Of a stretch of DNA of 64,000 nt, positions 256-24,600 are shown piece after piece (position 1 is the stretch's first letter; each line of letters starts with the position of its first letter). The notes beneath the pieces are model-generated. The model searched no databases, was not told the DNA's origin, and saw only the letters and a list, made by a program, of their open reading frames with translations. Location: positions 1-64,000 of IMG/VR virus record IMGVR_UViG_3300037067_013379. One strand, given 5' to 3'. A program made the position numbers and the translations under genes. Source of the stretch: a virus (taxonomy: Duplodnaviria; Caudoviricetes).

Positions 256-843
256 ATGTCAACACAAACCGGCACCAACCAGACGCAGGAGACGGCAATG
301 GCGATCAACGACAACGGCACCATCACCCACACCGGCCTCGTCCTCGGCACCTACGAGCACAACGGCTACGACGACAGCGACTTCATCGCGGCCGTCTGGA
401 ACCCCGACACCCGCACCATCGACCACATCGAGTACGACTCGACCCGCTACGGCGGACACGGCAGCGCCACCCGCGACGCGAGCCCCGAAACCATCGCCCA
501 GGCCGAGGCCGTACTCGCCGCACGCCTCGCCGAGATCGACCTCACCCAGGCCCGCAAGGACGCGACCACCCCGGTCAAGGGCCGCCGTGTCCGGTCCACC
601 ACCAAGCGCGGCAAGAACGTCGGGGTCGAGGGCATCGTGATGTGGAGGGGCGAGAAGCGCTCCCAGTACGGCACCTGGTCATACGGCTACCGCGTCGGCA
701 TCAAGGTCGATGGGGAAACCCGCCTCCGCTACCTCGACGAGACCGCCGTCGAGGTCCTCGACCCCCCCACCGTCGACGAGGCCACGATCACCCGCCACGC
801 GGCCGAGGACGCCCGACGTCACCAGTGGTGGCTGTCGAAGTAG
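256..843 (+). CDS. Hypothetical phage protein (start at 256, possibly leaderless, or at 298)
   Basis: ORF directly downstream of the promoter; GGAG precedes ATG 298; followed by a hairpin. Confidence 0.7.
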   Translation: MSTQTGTNQTQETAMAINDNGTITHTGLVLGTYEHNGYDDSDFIAAVWNPDTRTIDHIEYDSTRYGGHGSATRDASPETIAQAEAVLAARLAEIDLTQARKDATTPVKGRRVRSTTKRGKNVGVEGIVMWRGEKRSQYGTWSYGYRVGIKVDGETRLRYLDETAVEVLDPPTVDEATITRHAAEDARRHQWWLSK

Positions 844-856
844 CCCAACCCCCCCC

Positions 857-891
857 GAACGCCCGGCCGCGACCCGCAGGCCGGGCGTTTC
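857..891 (+). terminator. Intrinsic terminator-like hairpin
   Basis: GAACGCCCGGCC...GGCCGGGCGTTT just after the stop at 843. Confidence 0.6.
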
Positions 892-913
892 GGCATCCAC
901 ACAAAAAACCATG

Positions 914-952
914 CGTTAGAGTCTCGCTACATGTAGCGCACGTGGGTACCAT
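914..952 (+). promoter_or_regulatory. Promoter with degenerate CGTTA-N15-TAACG operator
   Basis: TCGCTA, 17 bp, TACCAT; CGTTA-N15-TAGCG spans the -35. Confidence 0.5.
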
Positions 953-990
953 AGTGGTACGTCAATCGCACCGCGAACGGAGCGCCCACC

Positions 991-1348
991 ATGAAGGACA
1001 TCACCACGATCGCGAAGGAAATCCACGCGGACGTCAAAACCGCCCTCGAACATGGCACCATCGCCGTACCCCCCCTGCGTCCGCGTCACCGTCCGCGTCG
1101 ACCGACGCGGCCTCGCACCCAGCGTCAACGTCTACTTCAGCCCCACCGACGACACCGCTACCGACGACGTCAACGCCTGGAAATTCACCACCAACCCCGA
1201 CAACACCCACGTCCTGTCAGACGCGGTCAAGACCGCCGGAACCCGAATCCTCGCGATGATCAGAACCCGCAGCGACGGAACGTCCTACGGCGAGATCAAC
1301 TGCCACGGAACCATCATCGCGATCATGACCCCCGACCGAAACAGGTAG
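991..1348 (+). pseudogene. Hypothetical protein interrupted by a +1 frameshift in a C7 run (or sequencing error)
   Basis: MKDITT...AVPP (991 frame) joins CVRVTVRVDRR...DRNR (1052-1348 frame) if one C of 1069-1075 is removed. Confidence 0.55.
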
Positions 1349-1427
1349 ATCACCACCAACCGTCCACACACACCGTCACCCAACCGGACGACACCAACCA
1401 GGCACCACCAGCCGGTACCGTCCGAAC

Positions 1428-1931
1428 ATGGAGAACACCCCAGTCACGCAACGTGTCCTCGACGCAGCGGCCCTGATCCTGACAACGGCCGCGACCCGCA
1501 CCGAGCAAACCGGGTGCAACACAACAACCGCGTTCGCCTACGCGGAAGACCGGGCCTCCGAGACCTACCAACTCACCCGACCGGAACTAGCCCACGCGGC
1601 ACGGCTCGCCACATTCGCCGCGTTCGCCACGGGCGCCTACTCGATCAACGCCATGACCGACCCGGCCGTCAGGGAAACAGCCCTCCGAACCGCGATACCC
1701 CACATCACAACGGACCAGCCAAGGGACCAGCCATGCTCGACAAGATCCGAACCGTGTTCAACCGCACCCCGGACCCCGCCAAGACCTACACACCCGAAGA
1801 CCTCCGCCGTATCGGCCAGACACTCAGCGAGGAACAGTTCCGCCTGGAGGAGATTCGTCGCCTCCCTATCGAGGAGGCGGCCCGTCTCTACCCCGGCGAC
1901 CAGTGAACCGACCATGACGACCCCCGCGTAA
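1428..1931 (+). CDS. Hypothetical protein (3' part overlaps next gene)
   Basis: Protein-like N-terminal ~100 aa; tail reads like an off-frame extension. Confidence 0.5.
   Translation: MENTPVTQRVLDAAALILTTAATRTEQTGCNTTTAFAYAEDRASETYQLTRPELAHAARLATFAAFATGAYSINAMTDPAVRETALRTAIPHITTDQPRDQPCSTRSEPCSTAPRTPPRPTHPKTSAVSARHSARNSSAWRRFVASLSRRRPVSTPATSEPTMTTPA
1733..1906 (+). CDS. Small hypothetical protein MLDKIRTVFN...
   Basis: AAGGGA RBS before ATG 1733; helical, protein-like composition. Confidence 0.55.
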   Translation: MLDKIRTVFNRTPDPAKTYTPEDLRRIGQTLSEEQFRLEEIRRLPIEEAARLYPGDQ

Positions 1932-1984
1932 CCTCCCAACGGCACCCGGCGAACCCGGGGGGAAACACCGGGTGCCACACAAAC

Positions 1985-2026
1985 GAAGGCCCCGACCACA
2001 CACCAGGGGTTGTGATCGGGGCCTTC
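1985..2026. terminator. Bidirectional terminator-like hairpin between convergent genes
   Basis: GAAGGCCCCGA...TCGGGGCCTTC. Confidence 0.6.
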
Positions 2027-2037
2027 ACCACGTCCGG

Positions 2038-3150
2038 CTACCCGGCGAGCCGGGCCGCCTCCTCGTCCGCTACCGCGTCCGCGACCTCCGCCGCGCTCGG
2101 CACCACCGGAACCGGCAACATCGGGGCCAGAGCAGCGGCCAGCGCCGCGACGTCGACATTCCCCAGCGCCAGGGCCGACACCCGGTCGAGTGTCTGCTGG
2201 GCGAGATCCCGGGCCGCCGTAGCCGCGACCTTCGCCTCCTCCGCCGCGACACGGGCCGCCTCCGCGATGTTCCGGGCGTCCCCGGCCGTGTTCGCCGCAC
2301 CAACCGCCGTTGAGTGGATCTCCGACAACTTCCCGGGAACCGCCCCGTACCAGTCGCCCATACGCATCGCGTTCCGTGGTCCGCCCATCCAGTCCGGGGG
2401 CGTGGCACCAACCGTGCCGTTCTTGAACTCGTCGAAGGACATGCCCAGATTCCAATCTCCGTCGGTACTACCCGAACCCTCGGACGGTGGCGTGACGACC
2501 ACGCCCCCGGAACCACCACCACGGGCCAGTGCCCGCAACTCGTCCACCGACCCCATGAACGCGTTCACGTCGATCGGGGACCTACCGGCGACCGTCGCGG
2601 ACGACGCGAACTGCAACACCGTCACTGAACCCCAACCGCCATACCGGGACGACCACCACGAGTCAGGGACCTTCTCGTACAACGTCGACCCGTATCCGCC
2701 ACCGGACACGTACCGGGAATCCCACAGGTACGGGGTCAGCGACGCGCCGTTCCACCCGCGCTCAGACCACCACCAGTTACCCGAGTACATGAACAACGGA
2801 TGATCTCCGGCGAGTTCACGCCACCGGGCGAAGAAGTCCACCGTCGTCTGCCACCCGGCGTCCGCCTCGTTGTCACACGCCACGAGCCACCCGTCCGGGC
2901 CGCCGTGGTCGCGCACCCGGTTGTAGAACGCGTCGCACTGCGCCCGACCGGACCCCGACCGTAGGTAGTGGTACGCCCCCGGCACGGCCCCGGACGCGAG
3001 GACCTGCCCCGCGAACGTGTCGAACATGCCATCGCGGAACGTCGTTCCCTCCGTGGCCTTCATCCACACCCCGGAGTAGCCCTCGGACACGGCCCGACCG
3101 ACGTCGAACGCGCCCTGGTGATTCGAGATGTCGATCAACCAAGTAACCAC
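2038..3150 (-). CDS. Endolysin, GH25 muramidase with helical C-terminal tail
   Basis: IDISNHQG, KATEG, GAYHY, CDNE, LQF and IDVNAF motifs of GH25; VDVAALAAALAP tail typical of actinophage lysins. Confidence 0.88.
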   Translation of the reverse strand: MVTWLIDISNHQGAFDVGRAVSEGYSGVWMKATEGTTFRDGMFDTFAGQVLASGAVPGAYHYLRSGSGRAQCDAFYNRVRDHGGPDGWLVACDNEADAGWQTTVDFFARWRELAGDHPLFMYSGNWWWSERGWNGASLTPYLWDSRYVSGGGYGSTLYEKVPDSWWSSRYGGWGSVTVLQFASSATVAGRSPIDVNAFMGSVDELRALARGGGSGGVVVTPPSEGSGSTDGDWNLGMSFDEFKNGTVGATPPDWMGGPRNAMRMGDWYGAVPGKLSEIHSTAVGAANTAGDARNIAEAARVAAEEAKVAATAARDLAQQTLDRVSALALGNVDVAALAAALAPMLPVPVVPSAAEVADAVADEEAARLAG

Positions 3151-18729: not shown

Positions 18730-20750
18730 TGATAGGTATCCGGCGTAGGAAGCGGCAGCTACGGGCGGTCAGCGAGGCGGACCCAGTCCTCCGCGCAGAG
18801 ATCGATGGGCTGTTCTCGCCCCCGGTCCTGTGGCGGTTCCGGGGGGCCGACACCACCACGGCCCGGTTCCGGGAGATCATGACGGCGTCGGCGCGTCGCG
18901 CTATCGGTGACGGGCCGGCCGGTCGGTCGGTGACAGCGGCCGTGTCGCGCCTGTCGATGGACGGCGCGTCGTGGCGCTCGTACCGATTCGGCGATCGGGC
19001 GTGGCAGACGGACGCGTGGCGTTTGTACGACATCACCGGACAGTTGAGGTTCGTTGCGAACTGGGTCGGTAACTCCGTCTCGCGCTGCAACCTGTACGTC
19101 GCCAAGGCCAAACCGGACGGGTCCCCCGGCGAACGCGTCGAAACCGGTCCGGTAGCGGAACTCGCCTCCGGGCCGCTCGGTACCGGAGACGCGAAGGCCG
19201 AGGCACTGCGCCTCCTCGGAATCGACCTATTCGTTCCCGGCGAGGCGTACGTGGTAGCCCAGTCCGGGGGCGGGGAGGACGGCGAAGACCTCTGGTGGGT
19301 CGTCACATCGAGGCAGATCAAACGACAGGGCGACACGATCACGGTCAGCCGTTCCCCGGTGCACGGGGGCGGGACCATGGAGTACCGCGAGGGCATCGAC
19401 CTGATCCTCCGGGTGTGGACACCGCACCCGGCCGACACGTCCGAACCCGACTCGGCGACCCGGTCCGCGATCCCGGACCTCCGCGAGATGGAGGCGCTGC
19501 GGAAACGCGAGTTCGCCGAGTTGGACTCCCGGCTGTCCGGGGCCGGCGTGTTCGCGATCCCCGAATCGTTGGAACTCCCCCGGGGAGACGACGACCCGGC
19601 CGGGGCCGCTGGGTTCTCCGCGCTCCTCGGCCGGGTCATGTCCCGGTCGTTGCGGGACCGGTCGTCAGCCGAGGCCATGGTGCCGATCATCATCACCGGC
19701 CCCGGCGACGATATCGAGAAGATCCGACACATCACACTCTGGTCGGAACTGTCCGAACAGATTGGGACGATGCGGGAAGGCGCCCTCCGGTCCCTCGCCC
19801 AGTCGCTGGACATCCCGCCCGAGGTCCTGATCGGGTTGGGTTCGTCGACGAACCACTGGAACGCCTGGGCGATCAGCCGCGAGGCCGTACAGATCCACAT
19901 CAAACCGGTGTTGACCCGCATCGCAGCGGCCCTCACCACCGGCTACCTCGCACCCGCGCTCGAAGCGATGGGCGAGGACCCGAACGGCTACCTCTACGCG
20001 TTCGACACCTCGCCATTGACCACGAACCCCGACCGTTCCGGGGACGCCAAGGACCTCCACGACCGTATGCTGTTGTCAGACGCCGTAACCCGGGCCGCGT
20101 CGTCGTGGTCCGACGGGGACGCCCCCTCCCCAACCGAGCGCTCCGTGCGACTCGTCGAGAAACTCCTCCTCACGTCCCCCGACGCGGTCCTGTCCGACCC
20201 GACCCTCCGGGCGCTGATCGGACTACCCGAGGCCCAAACGGTCGCGGCACCGGCCCCCACAACCCCCACGGGCACGGAGGAGACACCGCCCCCCGTCGAG
20301 GAGGAGGAAACCCTCCCCGAAGAAACCGAGGTCGAGGAGGAGGAGGGCGGAGAGGGCCAGGGGCCGCCACCGGCCGGACCACCCACGGCACCACCTGGAT
20401 TGTCGTTCGCGGCACAGTTGGCGATCCGACGGGCGCTCGGCCTCGCCGGAACCCGCCTCGTCCCGCACTCGAAACGGCCGACCGGGGTACCCGCCTACCA
20501 GTTGCACGTTCATCACGGGCCGGTGGTCGGATCACAGAAGATCGCGACGTTCCTCGCCGGATCCTGGCGGGACGAGTTCGCGGGGGTCGGATCGGCGTTC
20601 GGGGTAGACGACCGGTTGTTCGTCGCGCTGGTCGAGGAGCACTGCCGTGACCTGTTGGTCCGTGGAATCGCCTATGACCCCGTCGACGTCGATACCCTGT
20701 TCGCGGCCCCGGCGACCATCAACCGGCTACGGGTGATCTCCTGTGGATGA
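18726..20750 (+). CDS. Portal protein
   Basis: WQTDAWRLYDITGQLRFVANWVGNSVSRC resembles cluster-B-type portals; located after terL. Confidence 0.8.
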   Translation: MMIGIRRRKRQLRAVSEADPVLRAEIDGLFSPPVLWRFRGADTTTARFREIMTASARRAIGDGPAGRSVTAAVSRLSMDGASWRSYRFGDRAWQTDAWRLYDITGQLRFVANWVGNSVSRCNLYVAKAKPDGSPGERVETGPVAELASGPLGTGDAKAEALRLLGIDLFVPGEAYVVAQSGGGEDGEDLWWVVTSRQIKRQGDTITVSRSPVHGGGTMEYREGIDLILRVWTPHPADTSEPDSATRSAIPDLREMEALRKREFAELDSRLSGAGVFAIPESLELPRGDDDPAGAAGFSALLGRVMSRSLRDRSSAEAMVPIIITGPGDDIEKIRHITLWSELSEQIGTMREGALRSLAQSLDIPPEVLIGLGSSTNHWNAWAISREAVQIHIKPVLTRIAAALTTGYLAPALEAMGEDPNGYLYAFDTSPLTTNPDRSGDAKDLHDRMLLSDAVTRAASSWSDGDAPSPTERSVRLVEKLLLTSPDAVLSDPTLRALIGLPEAQTVAAPAPTTPTGTEETPPPVEEEETLPEETEVEEEEGGEGQGPPPAGPPTAPPGLSFAAQLAIRRALGLAGTRLVPHSKRPTGVPAYQLHVHHGPVVGSQKIATFLAGSWRDEFAGVGSAFGVDDRLFVALVEEHCRDLLVRGIAYDPVDVDTLFAAPATINRLRVISCG

Positions 20751-22686
20751 CATGTGGTCGTTGGAGTACGCCCGGACCGTGCCGGGTGCGATGGTCAACG
20801 CGGTTGGGGACGTGTTCTACCCGGACGGCCCCGAGGACGCGGCGTGGTTCGCGGTAGAGCACGAAGCGTGGGTGATCACCGGCGCTGACACGGGGCCGGT
20901 GTGGGACGGCGAGGGAACCGACCCGTGGCTGGTTCCCCGGATGGAGGCAGCGGCGGAGGCCGCCGTGGCGGAGGCCGCGATCCGTGAGGCCCTGTGGGTC
21001 GAGTTGTCTGGGTGGCTGGTGACGGTGTCCCGCGCGGTCCTCCACACGGCGCTCCCCGACCCGTTGGCCGTGTTCTCGAAGTCCCCAGCGTGGGCTGCCG
21101 CCGTGGACCGGGTCGTTCGGGGTCCGGTCCGGGACGCGGTCGGTGCGGCCTACCAGACACTGCTGGGACCCGGGTTCCGATTCGATTCGCGTCCGGCCGT
21201 GGTCGAGCACCTGGCGACGGTGTCCAACCGGATGGTTCGCACCGTGGACTCGACGTTTGATCTCGTCGCCCGGCAGGTGTCGATCGGGGCGAACCTCGGC
21301 GAAAGCGCGGCGGAGATCGCGGACCGGGTCGACGGGGTGTTGTCGACCACCCGCACGGAGCGCTGGCCGAACCGGGCGACCGTGGTCGCGCGGACGGAGA
21401 CGATGGGGGCGTTGAACGCCGGCCGGCAGGATGCGTTCGCGGCCGTGGCGGAGGAGTTGGCGAAGCCGTTCGAGCAGATGTGGGTGGCGACGATGGACAA
21501 GCGGGTTCGCCACACCCACCGGCGCGCGGACGGGCAGCGGGTACCGACGGGGCAGCCGTTCATCGTTGGTGGCGCGTCGCTGCGGTTCCCCGGCGACCCC
21601 ATGGGACCGGGCAAAGAGGTCATACAGTGTCTACCGGGAACTACCATGGTCGACTATCGGGCTATACGTTCCGTTATGAGACGTTGGTACGACGGTGATG
21701 TTGTCACGATCCGGTTTGCCAGTGGCGACGATCTCACCATTACACCGAATCACCCGGTATTGCGGGCCGATGGGAGATGGGTTTCCGCTGGTCTCCTCAA
21801 CGAAGGAGATCACTGCGTTCGCTGTGGTTTCCGTCGGGACGATTCCGGAGCACCAGACGAAGATGGTGGACCATCCGAGATCGGCGAGGTCTACCGTTCG
21901 GCGTGCGAGTACCAGACGGCGAATCGGATAGCCCTCTCCCCACCAGACCTCCACGGCGACGCGCCCAATGGCGAGGTCGATGTTGTAGCCGTACACGGCG
22001 GTTTGCGTTTCGACGGTGATCCCGCACGCGAGGAGGAGATCGACAAGTTCGGCCTCACCCTTGCCGACTTTGCGTGTTCGTGTCGTGGCGGTACTGATGG
22101 TGGGTTGTTCACGGTCAGGATTCCTCTTAGCGAATCTGACGCCGGACTTGCGTCGTTCGGCGTTCGCCGGTGCCGTGAGGAGACGGCGGGCCTCGACGTC
22201 GGTTCGTCCCATTCTGATTCTGTTGGCCTCACTTCTGGTACGGATGGTGATTCCAGCGGCCTTGAGACGACGGATGATGGTCGGTCGACTAACACCGGTT
22301 GCTGCCGCGATCGCGAGGACGCTGTCGCCGTTGTTGTATCGGGCGATCACGTCGGCCGTGTCGATGTTGACGCCCGTGGCGAGTCGTCCGGCTTCGGACG
22401 CGGTTCGGATTCTGGTACCTACGGCCCGGAGGTTCTTGGTGATGGTGTCCGGGGTGTATCCGAGTTCGGTTGCGAGTTCGACGGTGCTGGCACCGTTTTC
22501 GTAACGACGTCGGAGATCGTTTCGATCGATCGGCACGCGTTCGCGGGTCATGTGTTCAACCTCGACACTGGAGTTGGGTGGTACACCGCCAATTGTATAC
22601 CAGTAAGAAATTGCCGGTGCACCACGATCCTTTTGGAACCGGGGGAGAATGTTGATCTCACGCATCGTCAGTTCAAGAATCACTAG
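20743..22686 (+). CDS. MuF-like minor head protein containing an intein
   Basis: ARTET, WVATMDKRVRHTH, DGQ and FPGDP motifs; EVIQ|CRC is restored on removing 21628-22611. Confidence 0.88.
   Translation: MDDMWSLEYARTVPGAMVNAVGDVFYPDGPEDAAWFAVEHEAWVITGADTGPVWDGEGTDPWLVPRMEAAAEAAVAEAAIREALWVELSGWLVTVSRAVLHTALPDPLAVFSKSPAWAAAVDRVVRGPVRDAVGAAYQTLLGPGFRFDSRPAVVEHLATVSNRMVRTVDSTFDLVARQVSIGANLGESAAEIADRVDGVLSTTRTERWPNRATVVARTETMGALNAGRQDAFAAVAEELAKPFEQMWVATMDKRVRHTHRRADGQRVPTGQPFIVGGASLRFPGDPMGPGKEVIQCLPGTTMVDYRAIRSVMRRWYDGDVVTIRFASGDDLTITPNHPVLRADGRWVSAGLLNEGDHCVRCGFRRDDSGAPDEDGGPSEIGEVYRSACEYQTANRIALSPPDLHGDAPNGEVDVVAVHGGLRFDGDPAREEEIDKFGLTLADFACSCRGGTDGGLFTVRIPLSESDAGLASFGVRRCREETAGLDVGSSHSDSVGLTSGTDGDSSGLETTDDGRSTNTGCCRDREDAVAVVVSGDHVGRVDVDARGESSGFGRGSDSGTYGPEVLGDGVRGVSEFGCEFDGAGTVFVTTSEIVSIDRHAFAGHVFNLDTGVGWYTANCIPVRNCRCTTILLEPGENVDLTHRQFKNH
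21628..22611 (+). mobile_element. Intein (328 aa) inserted at the MuF EVIQ/CRC site
   Basis: Block A CLPGTTMV; block B TITPNHPV; block F VFNLDT; block G PVRN followed by +1 Cys (penultimate Arg instead of His). Confidence 0.9.
21631..22551 (-). CDS. Antisense, intein-nested putative homing endonuclease (tandem HTH + Vsr/DUF559-like PD-(D/E)xK domain)
   Basis: Two HTH repeats (YENGASTVELATELGYTPDTI; YNNGDSVLAIAAATGVSRPTI); E.ELVDLL...Q...YNIDLAI...AVEV nuclease pattern; GAGGT RBS; lies wholly within the intein. Confidence 0.78.
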   Translation of the reverse strand: MTRERVPIDRNDLRRRYENGASTVELATELGYTPDTITKNLRAVGTRIRTASEAGRLATGVNIDTADVIARYNNGDSVLAIAAATGVSRPTIIRRLKAAGITIRTRSEANRIRMGRTDVEARRLLTAPANAERRKSGVRFAKRNPDREQPTISTATTRTRKVGKGEAELVDLLLACGITVETQTAVYGYNIDLAIGRVAVEVWWGEGYPIRRLVLARRTVDLADLGWSTIFVWCSGIVPTETTANAVISFVEETSGNPSPIGPQYRVIRCNGEIVATGKPDRDNITVVPTSHNGTYSPIVDHGSSR

Positions 22687-22701
22687 CGTTAGGGGCTAGG
22701 T

Positions 22702-24600
22702 ATGGGTACCGGATGGCGGGGCATGCTCGCCCCCCTCGACGTGTCCACCGGGGACGGCCGGCGTTTCCTGTCGTCCGGGGTGTCGTCACGGCAGTTGCCG
22801 TTGCCGTTGAAGTGGCAACGGGCGGACACCGAGGGTCATGACAACTCGGTGATCGTCGGATCGTTGGAACGGATCGAGTACGGGACGGTCGCGGAGGCGA
22901 TCGACGCGGGATGGATCGACGCGAAATGTGTCAAACCATCCAAGTTCTCGAAGGACCTGCGCGCAGCGTGGGGATTCGGACAGATGTTCGACGACATCAA
23001 CCCCAACGACATGCCTCGCCTCCACGAGGACGTCATGGAGTCGAAACACCTCCTCGGCCAACAGGTCATCGGACCGTCGGTCGACGCGGGATCCTGCGAG
23101 GCCGTGATCGCCCTCAAGGGATCCGACGAGGCCCTCACCGAGGAGCAGTTCGACGAACTGTTCTGGGGCGAGGGATCGGAAGACGTCGAACTCGAACTCC
23201 TGTTCACCGAGTACCAGATCGCGGCAGCGACGTTGGTTCCCATCCCGGCGTTCGCCGAGTGCCGGCCGTTCCAGTTGCTCGCCGAGGAGACGATCACAGC
23301 CGCTGTCCGGAAGACCGGCTGGTCCGACATGCCCCTCGCCGAACGTGACATGGCTTGGGACGGCACGGCCGCCGAGAAGCGGATCGCCGATAACGCCGGC
23401 ATCGGGGGCGACAACCCCGACTGGGGCCGGTACGCGCAGGCGTTCCTCTACCAGAACGACGACGCGAACCCCGAGACCAAGGGGGCGTACGGTTTCCAGA
23501 TCGCGGACATGGTCGACGGAACCCAGCGAATCATCCCCCGGGCCGTGTTCGCCGTTGCCGGCGTTCTCCAGGGCGCCCGTGGTGGAACCACGATCCCCCA
23601 GGCAGACCAGGACGCCATGAAGGGTGTGGTCGAGGGGTTGTACAACCGGATGGCGGACGAGTTCCAGGACGACACGATCGTTGTTCCGTGGGCGGAGGAG
23701 ACCGCGTCACTCATCGCGGCCGTCACAGCCGCTGCCGGCGTGGCGCTCGGCTACGACCCGGCCCTGTTCGACAACCCGAACCTCAACACCATCACCCCGA
23801 TCACGGTCACCGACGACGGCCGGGTGTTCGGACACGTAGCGACCCACGACGTGTGCCACGTTGGCATGCCCGGGATGTGCACCACGGCCCCCGTCGACGA
23901 CGACGGGTACGCGATGTTCCACCGGTACCGGCCGGAGGGTTTCCCCGTCCCGGTCGGCCGGATCACCACCGGGGGCGGGAAGTTCGGCTGCACCTGCCGG
24001 CAGTGCGCGGGAAGGAACGACGACCACGCGTGCCTCAAACTGTCGCTCGGTGGGGCGATCGCACACCACGACCGGCTGTCGACCGTCGCCTGGGTGCGTG
24101 CCGGGGAGGACACCCGGTTGAACGCCGTGTGGGTCTCCGGGGTCGCGAATCCGGCCGCGTCGGTCGAGGACCTCGCCGCGTTGTCCCGGCAGAAGGTGTC
24201 GGGTGACTGGCGACCAACCGGGGGGAAACCGGAACTCGTCGAGATCCTCGCCCTCGCCCGTGAGGAGCCGGGTTTCCCACTGCCACGGTTCCGGGTCGCG
24301 GCCGGGCAGGTTGCCGCGCTGACCGCCGCTGGTGTGGTACTACCGTCGGGGGGCGAGACGCCCGATGGGATGACCATCGATTACGAGCGGTTGGCGGACC
24401 TTCTCGCCGGGCGTCTCGCGTCCCATCTTCGCCCGGTGGTTCCCCCGGCCGGTGGAGACGAGACCGCCGTGACGGCCGCTGACACCACACCACCCACCGT
24501 TGATGATGATGTTGTACCCGGCCTGCTCGGGGAGGTTGACGACGCGGTGAACGCCGGGGTCGCGATTCGTCTCCGGGCCGAACTCGACGAGGTGTTCTGA
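22702..24600 (+). CDS. Capsid maturation (prohead) protease / head protein
   Basis: WRG.LAP..VSTGDGRRF, LPLPL, H...VIVG, GPSVD and ATLVPIPAF motifs; position after MuF. Confidence 0.75.
   Translation: MGTGWRGMLAPLDVSTGDGRRFLSSGVSSRQLPLPLKWQRADTEGHDNSVIVGSLERIEYGTVAEAIDAGWIDAKCVKPSKFSKDLRAAWGFGQMFDDINPNDMPRLHEDVMESKHLLGQQVIGPSVDAGSCEAVIALKGSDEALTEEQFDELFWGEGSEDVELELLFTEYQIAAATLVPIPAFAECRPFQLLAEETITAAVRKTGWSDMPLAERDMAWDGTAAEKRIADNAGIGGDNPDWGRYAQAFLYQNDDANPETKGAYGFQIADMVDGTQRIIPRAVFAVAGVLQGARGGTTIPQADQDAMKGVVEGLYNRMADEFQDDTIVVPWAEETASLIAAVTAAAGVALGYDPALFDNPNLNTITPITVTDDGRVFGHVATHDVCHVGMPGMCTTAPVDDDGYAMFHRYRPEGFPVPVGRITTGGGKFGCTCRQCAGRNDDHACLKLSLGGAIAHHDRLSTVAWVRAGEDTRLNAVWVSGVANPAASVEDLAALSRQKVSGDWRPTGGKPELVEILALAREEPGFPLPRFRVAAGQVAALTAAGVVLPSGGETPDGMTIDYERLADLLAGRLASHLRPVVPPAGGDETAVTAADTTPPTVDDDVVPGLLGEVDDAVNAGVAIRLRAELDEVF

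Follow-up and report, generated by a model that had tools for sequence, protein, structure and literature searches.

A MuF intein and a putative Vsr-like homing endonuclease gene sharing DNA on opposite strands in an uncultivated phage

Anti-sense VSR-like endonucleases in inteins of actinophage minor capsid proteins were described by Gosselin, Arsenault and Gogarten (2025; bioRxiv 10.1101/2025.01.02.630785, version 2025-10-20). According to that preprint, a survey of PhagesDB yielded 63 inteins with non-canonical endonucleases, anti-sense VSR-like ones among them, whose host proteins include minor capsid proteins and terminases. A link to 3R3P was obtained with HHpred, free-standing endonuclease genes were proposed to have invaded inteins, and a warning was given that annotation misses such endonucleases. 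Here we describe a locus with this architecture in 64,000 nucleotides (nt) of viral DNA (Caudoviricetes; IMG/VR record IMGVR_UViG_3300037067_013379, positions 1 to 64,000), hereafter referred to as the window. A contiguous intein interrupts a gene for a MuF-like minor capsid protein, an endonuclease-like open reading frame (ORF) occupies the opposite strand of the intein, and the sense frame in between is without a predicted fold. We consider it probable (roughly 0.85) that this is one selfish element in which two genes, the MuF intein and an antisense homing endonuclease, share DNA on opposite strands.

A first-pass annotation of the window had implied that this architecture was novel. Since it was already described by Gosselin et al., the finding is real but not a new kind of thing. 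The copy in the window stems from an uncultivated phage, and its ORF extends from inside intein block F through block B to the second codon of the intein. In term searches of the main text of the preprint we found neither a universal codon register, a block-F start site with a Shine-Dalgarno sequence or an overlap with block B, nor codon avoidance at lower G+C content (GC), proteobacterial phages or a convergent free-standing copy.

Three further systems are related. According to the same preprint, which cites Gorbalenya 1998 and Gogarten 2002, LAGLIDADG genes are found in anti-sense orientation within the inteins of Synechocystis DnaX and other proteins; there, too, an endonuclease is located opposite a contiguous intein, but nuclease family and hosts differ. 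In the fractured genes of Dassa et al. (2009; PMC2677866), split inteins flank a free-standing Vsr-like endonuclease gene. Both there and here a Vsr-like endonuclease has its own ORF between N- and C-terminal splicing parts, but the intein of the window is contiguous and has its endonuclease gene in register on the complementary strand; antisense, reverse strand and same strand are not mentioned in PMC2677866. Finally, I-Bth0305I (Taylor et al. 2011, PMC3239194; PDB 3R3P) is the prototype of the EDxHD homing endonucleases, and the composite EDxHD motif with its conserved general-base His was defined in the same work. I-Bth0305I belongs to a sense-strand group I intron and carries NUMOD motifs, in contrast to the resolvase-type helix-turn-helix (HTH) modules found here. 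Moreover, the family described here is without the conserved EDxHD His and second Asp, and its Pfam matches place it closer to MTES_1575 and DUF559. In the open literature on a MuF intein of Aaphi23 or of Salmonella phages nothing relevant was found.

Anatomy of the two overlapping genes

The MuF-like minor capsid or head morphogenesis gene (20743..22686, plus strand) encodes a precursor of 647 amino acids including the intein. Its product matches Phage_Mu_F in Pfam (E 3e-10), and among the PHROG families it matches several for head morphogenesis, the best of them with E 4e-44. The class-1 intein (21628..22611, plus strand; 984 base pairs, bp) is inserted in frame between EVIQ and CRC and comprises 328 codons, corresponding to MuF codons 296–623. 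It begins with the residues CLPG, contains TPNH at codons 39–42 and GHVFNL at codons 307–312, and ends in VRN/C (slashes mark insertion boundaries). An in-frame 984-bp insertion with intein blocks A, B, F and G had been recognized in the first-pass annotation, and all four blocks are found exactly where it had placed them. The flanks read EVIQ/CRC, in agreement with its statement that MuF without the insertion joins EVIQ to CRC.

The intein consists of three segments. The N-terminal part of the Hint domain (21628..21819, plus strand; codons 1–64) includes block A (CLPG) and block B (TPNH, 21742–21753). The C-terminal part (22516..22611, plus strand) includes blocks F (GHVFNL) and G (VRN). Between them lies a sense linker (21820..22515, plus strand; codons 65–296), which is a shadow translation of the antisense gene. 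In the intein alignment (A2) Cys1, T39, H42, G307, H308, V309, N311, L312, Asn328 and Cys+1 are invariant, as is the complete block-B sequence T39-P-N-H42 (TxxH). The class-1 splice residues at position 1, the terminal Asn and position +1 are kept in all typed homologues, with Thr+1 at site b. In all typed inteins the TxxH motif is located 37–39 residues past C1 (38 in the window). The compact intein would be translated within the MuF precursor and splice itself out, which would restore the conserved ...IQ-CRC... sequence. We infer splicing from the conserved splice residues and from the selection that holds the sense frame open, as discussed below.

The antisense gene (21631..22551, minus strand) encodes a protein of 306 amino acids, P0002. 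Its start codon ATG (22549–22551) and its stop codon TAG (21631–21633) are the reverse complements of two intein codons, namely CAT for the His of block F and CTA at the second position of the intein, respectively. The frames of the MuF intein and P0002 are in codon-for-codon register (register 0). The reverse-strand ORF and both codon pairings had been proposed before, and their coordinates were confirmed. Homologues of P0002 are called as genes in other records.

Start site and Shine-Dalgarno sequence of the antisense gene are embedded in block F (22549..22563, minus strand). The ATG is preceded by a GAGG (22560–22563) with an 8-nt spacer, opposite the block-F codons His...Asn-Leu, and the GAGG is the complement of the Asn-Leu codons. 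In 9/9 aligned homologues the antisense ATG is opposite the block-F His, and GAGG is found at a constant distance of 8 bases before it (AAGG in one homologue). In Fosterous a stop codon occurs just upstream of the block-F ATG, which is therefore the sole usable start there. A second segment (21745..21762) is dual-coding, with sense PNHPVL from block B and antisense QYRVIR (P0002 residues 264–269). In the nuclease model QYRVIR contains a β-strand (residues 265–269; block mean predicted local distance difference test score, pLDDT, of ~83) inside the range aligned to Vsr. This segment shows zero second-position changes and equal numbers of changes at positions 1 and 3. In free-standing relatives a hydrophobic strand is kept at this position, while its sequence is freer. 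The last ~20 residues of P0002 are predicted to be disordered, and the position of the stop codon varies among homologues.

P0002 combines two HTH modules (22258..22527, minus strand; residues ~9–43 and 65–98) with a predicted Vsr-like nuclease domain of the PD-(D/E)xK, DUF559/MTES_1575 type (21718..22074, minus strand; residues ~160–278), as had been suggested from the sequence alone. The HTH assignment is based on matches above the Pfam gathering scores for HTH_58, HTH_38, HTH_23 and HTH_7, in two separate modules. For the nuclease part, P0002 itself matches REase_MTES_1575 weakly (residues 167–202; 17.3 bits versus a cut-off of 38.2). MTES_1575 is matched by 8 of 16 relatives at E values up to 0.01 (best 3.5e-6) and DUF559 by one (4e-7). 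With the profile of the family (alignment A1), hits were obtained to 2LVS, a structure with tandem HTH (E 3e-8), and to 3HRL, an endonuclease-like protein (E 1e-3).

The AlphaFold model of P0002 has a mean pLDDT of 72, with values of 75–92 in the nuclease core and 80–90 in the HTH helical bundles. It consists of two three-helix modules, a disordered linker (residues 130–161) and an α/β domain (residues 166–278) with a restriction-endonuclease-like core. The best structural match is Vsr (1CW0; score 11.1, root-mean-square deviation 2.5 Å, 108 residues aligned), followed by I-Bth0305I (3R3P; 10.2, model residues 163–256) and the endonuclease-like protein (3HRL; 9.3); Foldseek alone gave weaker structural matches for the nuclease domain. 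Among the acidic residues E201 is invariant, and E166 and D192 are present in at least 90% of the 16 sequences of alignment A1. The nuclease acidic motifs are also found in distant phage homologues. Judged from sequence and model, the nuclease is Vsr-like in its fold and is filed with the DUF559/MTES_1575-type proteins. Membership in the EDxHD family of I-Bth0305I was considered and rejected, because the conserved His is missing; in place of the His and the second Asp, E201 and R218 are found.

The prominence of the HTH modules raises the question whether P0002 could be a domesticated HTH regulator with an inactive nuclease-like fold, for example in late-gene control or MuF repression. The strongest sequence signals are indeed those of HTH families, the EDxHD His is absent, and in one source a homologue is listed as 'transcriptional regulator with XRE-family HTH domain'. 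On the other hand, the most conserved columns of the family are nuclease-domain residues, and the gene always occurs together with the intein or, when free-standing, beside the MuF target site. Moreover, a paralogous copy is polymorphic between MuF genes of ~90% identity. A purely regulatory role is distinctly improbable in the light of these observations.

Selection on the two strands and maintenance of open frames

The first-pass annotation had taken the middle of the sense frame for shadow sequence, and several observations bear this out. The GC content at third codon positions (GC3) is 0.89 in the N-extein, compared with 0.61 in the sense middle, where sense position 1 has a value of 0.70. 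The sense middle matches no Pfam family, including LAGLIDADG and HNH. While the antisense translation is predicted to fold into HTH modules and a Vsr-like domain, sense linker residues 66–292 reach a pLDDT of only 22–35 in the AlphaFold model of the whole intein, an imperfectly matched control based on a 6-sequence alignment.

Five inteins of equal length could be aligned without gaps, and differences per codon position as well as Nei-Gojobori ratios of nonsynonymous to synonymous substitution rates (dN/dS) were determined for each strand. In the middle (codons 65–296) dN/dS is 0.64–0.99 on the sense strand, with 0.88–0.99 in the informative pairs, compared to 0.25–0.43 on the antisense strand. 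The differences are concentrated at sense position 1, the counterpart of antisense position 3: between the window and locus L005 the counts at sense positions 1, 2 and 3 are 77/26/46, and a second independent pair gave 59/17/32. The Hint parts behave in the opposite way. Sense dN/dS is 0.17–0.40 in the N-part, with differences peaking at sense position 3, and 0–0.27 in the C-part, again with differences at sense position 3. For both parts together (codons 1–64 and 297–328) it is 0.15–0.40, while antisense dN/dS ranges from 0.26 to 1.63 and is not consistently low. According to a sliding count, selection switches strand near codons 57 and 297. Purifying selection thus acts on the antisense frame in the middle and on the sense frame in the Hint parts; the linker of ~230 codons is without a predicted fold and without signs of selection as a protein.

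When the middle of 14 homologues was compared with that of the window, the higher score was obtained with the antisense translation in 14/14 cases, for example with 79.7 (antisense) versus 21.2 bits (sense) for Aaphi23 and 68.9 versus 16.9 bits for a Klebsiella phage. These comparisons also bear on the converse possibility that the sense middle is a functional novel in-frame domain, of which the antisense similarity is the shadow. Its frame is open, and a pattern FHGD...EV(D/E)VV recurs across homologues. However, exactly this pattern results when the nuclease core motif YN(I/L)D...VAVEV is read in reverse. Together with the lower sense scores throughout, a sense dN/dS near 1, the missing Pfam match and the low pLDDT, this leaves such a domain next to no chance.

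In register 0 TTA, CTA and TCA are the only codons of the nuclease gene that give rise to a stop codon in the sense frame. Hence both frames can remain free of stops, at little cost when GC is high and through avoidance of these codons when it is lower. In the window (66% GC) ~1.5 of these codons are expected and none is observed, with a probability of 0.21 for finding none. In Aaphi23, Vibrio H2, Idiomarinaceae 1N2-2, Klebsiella P12620-1, Salmonella LPSE1 and Edwardsiella MSW-3 (42–52% GC), 6.3–13.2 such codons are expected from each phage's own Leu and Ser codon usage, and none is observed (P 9e-4 to 6e-8 each). The free-standing homologue from Acinetobacter phage IME285, which is outside any sense frame, contains 12 TTA/CTA/TCA codons. 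The avoidance at 42–52% GC indicates that the sense frame is held open by selection, which argues for translation of the intein as one piece. It had been suggested that high GC makes the arrangement easy to evolve. This is correct for the phage in the window, but high GC is not a requirement.

Codon avoidance also speaks against an effectively split MuF with a trans-spliced or non-spliced product, in which the open sense frame would be incidental. Fractured genes with split inteins around a Vsr-like endonuclease do exist (Dassa et al. 2009, PMC2677866), and some gene callers split MuF at the insert. Nevertheless, the sense frame is open in 19/19 loci, avoiding 6–13 expected codons at 42–52% GC, while the free-standing homologue does not avoid TTA, CTA and TCA. 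The chance that MuF is split in this manner is therefore very remote.

Distribution, insertion sites and mobility

A tblastn search with P0002 against deposited phage genomes returned 124 records, including 62 Salmonella, 15 Gordonia, 15 Pseudomonas and 8 Klebsiella phages, as well as phages of Vibrio, Edwardsiella, Aggregatibacter/Haemophilus and others. Among the matches listed, nearly all coincide with genes whose annotation is MuF, minor capsid, head morphogenesis or head protein. Our survey comprised the window together with 13 records from deposited phages and 6 loci from metagenomes; 19 of these instances, from phages of Gordonia, Mycobacterium, Salmonella, Klebsiella, Vibrio, Pseudomonas and Aggregatibacter, bear an intein. 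In every one of these 19 the endonuclease homologue is opposite the MuF strand, in register 0 and with both frames open. Across loci the divergence of the Hint parts co-varies with that of the endonuclease (Mantel r 0.93, p 2e-4). Such a co-variation is in line with joint inheritance of both parts, although the shared ancestry of the phages contributes to the correlation.

A megablast search of the MuF gene against deposited phages revealed no near-identical DNA, and a protein-pattern scan of IMG/VR for close relatives found only two loci. Near-identical DNA (21300–22900) is present in wastewater, landfill and groundwater metagenomes of several studies, and three of these runs may be those from which the record was derived. 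Annotation of the element is uneven: among the records inspected in this respect (L007–L010, L011 and L018), some call the antisense ORF together with a truncated MuF, others a single long 'head morphogenesis protein', and one annotates pieces on both strands. The Gordonia phages Angelicage, Affeca, Keitabear and Sedona have a Vsr-like antisense tblastn match under their MuF genes. In bioRxiv 10.1101/2025.01.02.630785 these four (the first as 'Angelicase') are named in a cluster that is treated together with endonuclease VII-like inteins. Several elements may be present in these phages, or the description of the clusters may differ. For P0015 the gene table suggests a free-standing gene.

Three insertion sites in MuF are occupied. 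Among 18 typed inteins, 15 are at the same site as in the window, just before a C(R/K)C motif, two are at ARTE/T (loci L005 and L008) and one is at KVWV/.../CTIDG in Mycobacterium phage Sejanus. In the latter (locus L019) gene 8, annotated as capsid maturation protease, carries an intein of the same family together with an antisense endonuclease at this third site (KVWV/C...HN/CTIDGK), which corresponds to MWVATMD at ~21478 in the window.

At the site ARTE/T, L005 and L008 contain an intein of 356 codons. This second intein is likewise accompanied by an antisense Vsr-like endonuclease, which shares 29% identity with P0002. Their MuF genes consequently hold two such elements and are open over 1005 and 1049 codons, respectively. 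The exteins of L005 are nearly identical to those of the window (~90% by eye), those of L008 more diverged. In the window the corresponding site for this second, paralogous intein, ARTE/TMGALNAGR (21399..21400, plus strand), is unoccupied. The presence of the paralogous intein in L005 and L008 and its absence from the similar MuF gene of the window is an insertion polymorphism, a sign of mobility. Both here (ARTE-TMGALNAGR in the window) and at the main site (...PM-CKC... in a distant MuF) the insertion site is conserved and uninterrupted in other alleles.

Acinetobacter phage vB_AbaM_IME285 (L011) has an intein-less MuF gene (455–1348, plus strand) and a convergent endonuclease homologue (1342–2118, minus strand). 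The 3' end of the latter overlaps the MuF stop codon, ~18 codons from the ...PM/CKC... site. The homologue is 29.5% identical to P0002 over 80% of its length and has the same nuclease motifs; it thus represents the same protein family, but without intein or sense-frame overlap. Such a position and orientation would be in line with an origin of the antisense arrangement in which an intein came to enclose a free-standing homing gene next to its target. The gene is thus a candidate precursor of this arrangement, but could equally represent an escaped state.

Metagenome contigs were searched for an intein-less allele, and none joins precisely across 21628–22611. One contig of 162 nt (run X8) joins 21070 to 22601, an in-frame skip of 1530 bp off the intein borders; this joint may be an assembly artefact or a deletion variant.

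Assessment and biological significance

The proposal of a contiguous intein with an antisense-encoded Vsr-like endonuclease is supported by four independent lines of evidence, i.e. family and fold, the strand-switching selection, the conservation in 19/19 loci and codon avoidance. Several observations weigh against it and have to be considered. The Hint domain is unusually small, with ~96 selected codons (~64 in the N-part and ~32 in the C-part). Its N-part matches Pfam Intein_splicing only weakly (residues 13–65; 17.5 bits versus a cut-off of 35.8), and in the AlphaFold model, obtained with a 6-sequence alignment, the Hint parts reach a pLDDT of 50–73 (residues 23–65 and 293–304). The penultimate residue of the intein is Arg327 instead of His, with H, S or R in relatives. 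A penultimate block-G His is common in inteins, but not obligatory, and functional inteins without this His are known. In the nuclease part no invariant or near-invariant His and no second Asp were detected, as judged by conservation in alignment A1 rather than by structural superposition. Without the EDxHD His, the chemistry of the nuclease may differ from that of I-Bth0305I. Furthermore, no close intein-less allele of the EVIQ/CRC site was found, and the sole MuF that is empty at the equivalent site is the distant one from the Acinetobacter phage (...PM-CKC...).

Further objections concern the open frame and its expression. The double open frame of the window is no rarer than expected by chance (P(none) ~0.21), and in neighbouring genes in-register antisense runs of 295–306 codons are open as well. 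By itself the ORF in the window is thus unremarkable, and the case rests on homology, fold and substitution pattern. A simple scan for promoters of the σ70 type found none in 21300–23000, with other promoter types outside the scan. A candidate -10 element, TACAAT, is located on the minus strand at 22592–22597, ~40 nt upstream of the antisense ATG. The hexamer TA(C/G)AAT occurs in 6/9 aligned homologues (shifted in one) and CACAAT in a seventh, and Aaphi23 has TATAAT nearer to the start. Since the candidate overlaps conserved block-G codons, the conservation of the hexamer is ambiguous. A metatranscriptome contains a 96%-identical contig of 1014 nt over 21425–22438. As its contigs are unstranded and may stem from DNA carry-over, they are silent on the strand.

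Alternatively, the antisense ORF in this phage could be the relic of a former endonuclease gene, no longer expressed or active and open merely through high GC, and the intein would behave as a mini-intein with a junk linker. The chance level of the open frame in the window, the long in-register runs in neighbouring genes, the negative promoter scan and the restriction of RNA evidence to unstranded contigs are all in line with such a relic. The substitution pattern, however, is not, since antisense dN/dS is 0.25–0.43 versus a sense value near 1, even between close relatives. In addition, E166, D192 and E201 are retained, the start codon and Shine-Dalgarno sequence are intact, and a 96%-identical copy keeps the frame too. 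A relic is consequently improbable.

In the selfish element favoured here, the 306-residue endonuclease would be made from its own minus-strand message, encoded by the DNA of the linker. Its presumed targets would be MuF alleles without the intein in co-infecting phages, to be cut close to the insertion site, and recombinational repair would then copy intein and endonuclease together, i.e. by homing.

More tentatively, with chances that we would put slightly below even, the MuF inteins with antisense Vsr-like endonucleases may represent a single dual-coding element of ancient origin with physically interlocked parts, which is distributed over phages of Actinobacteria as well as Gammaproteobacteria, rather than occasional accidents in actinophages of high GC. 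Block F would then contain the start codon and ribosome-binding site of the nuclease, and a β-strand of its fold would be encoded opposite block B. With the register fixed, neither part could be lost or moved alone, and the convergent Acinetobacter gene would mark the origin of the antisense orientation. If this holds true, the element would illustrate, as a case worked out in nature, the fusion of a splicing element with a free-standing homing gene into one mobile unit, and it could be tested in Salmonella phages of the Jersey type.

In practical terms, pipelines mishandle these loci as a giant 'MuF' or as an antisense ORF plus truncated MuF, which concerns at least 124 deposited phage genomes, 62 of them from Salmonella phages. 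Since cultivable phages of Salmonella, Gordonia and Aggregatibacter carry the element, expression, splicing and homing are directly testable. With ~300 codons that would be read on both strands, and with selection on each strand in a different segment, the locus provides a clean natural case for the constraints on overlapping genes. One protein family is found free-standing beside its target and embedded antisense in contiguous inteins, at three MuF sites. These findings are relevant to the question of how inteins originated, in particular to the view of 'splicing first, endonuclease later'.

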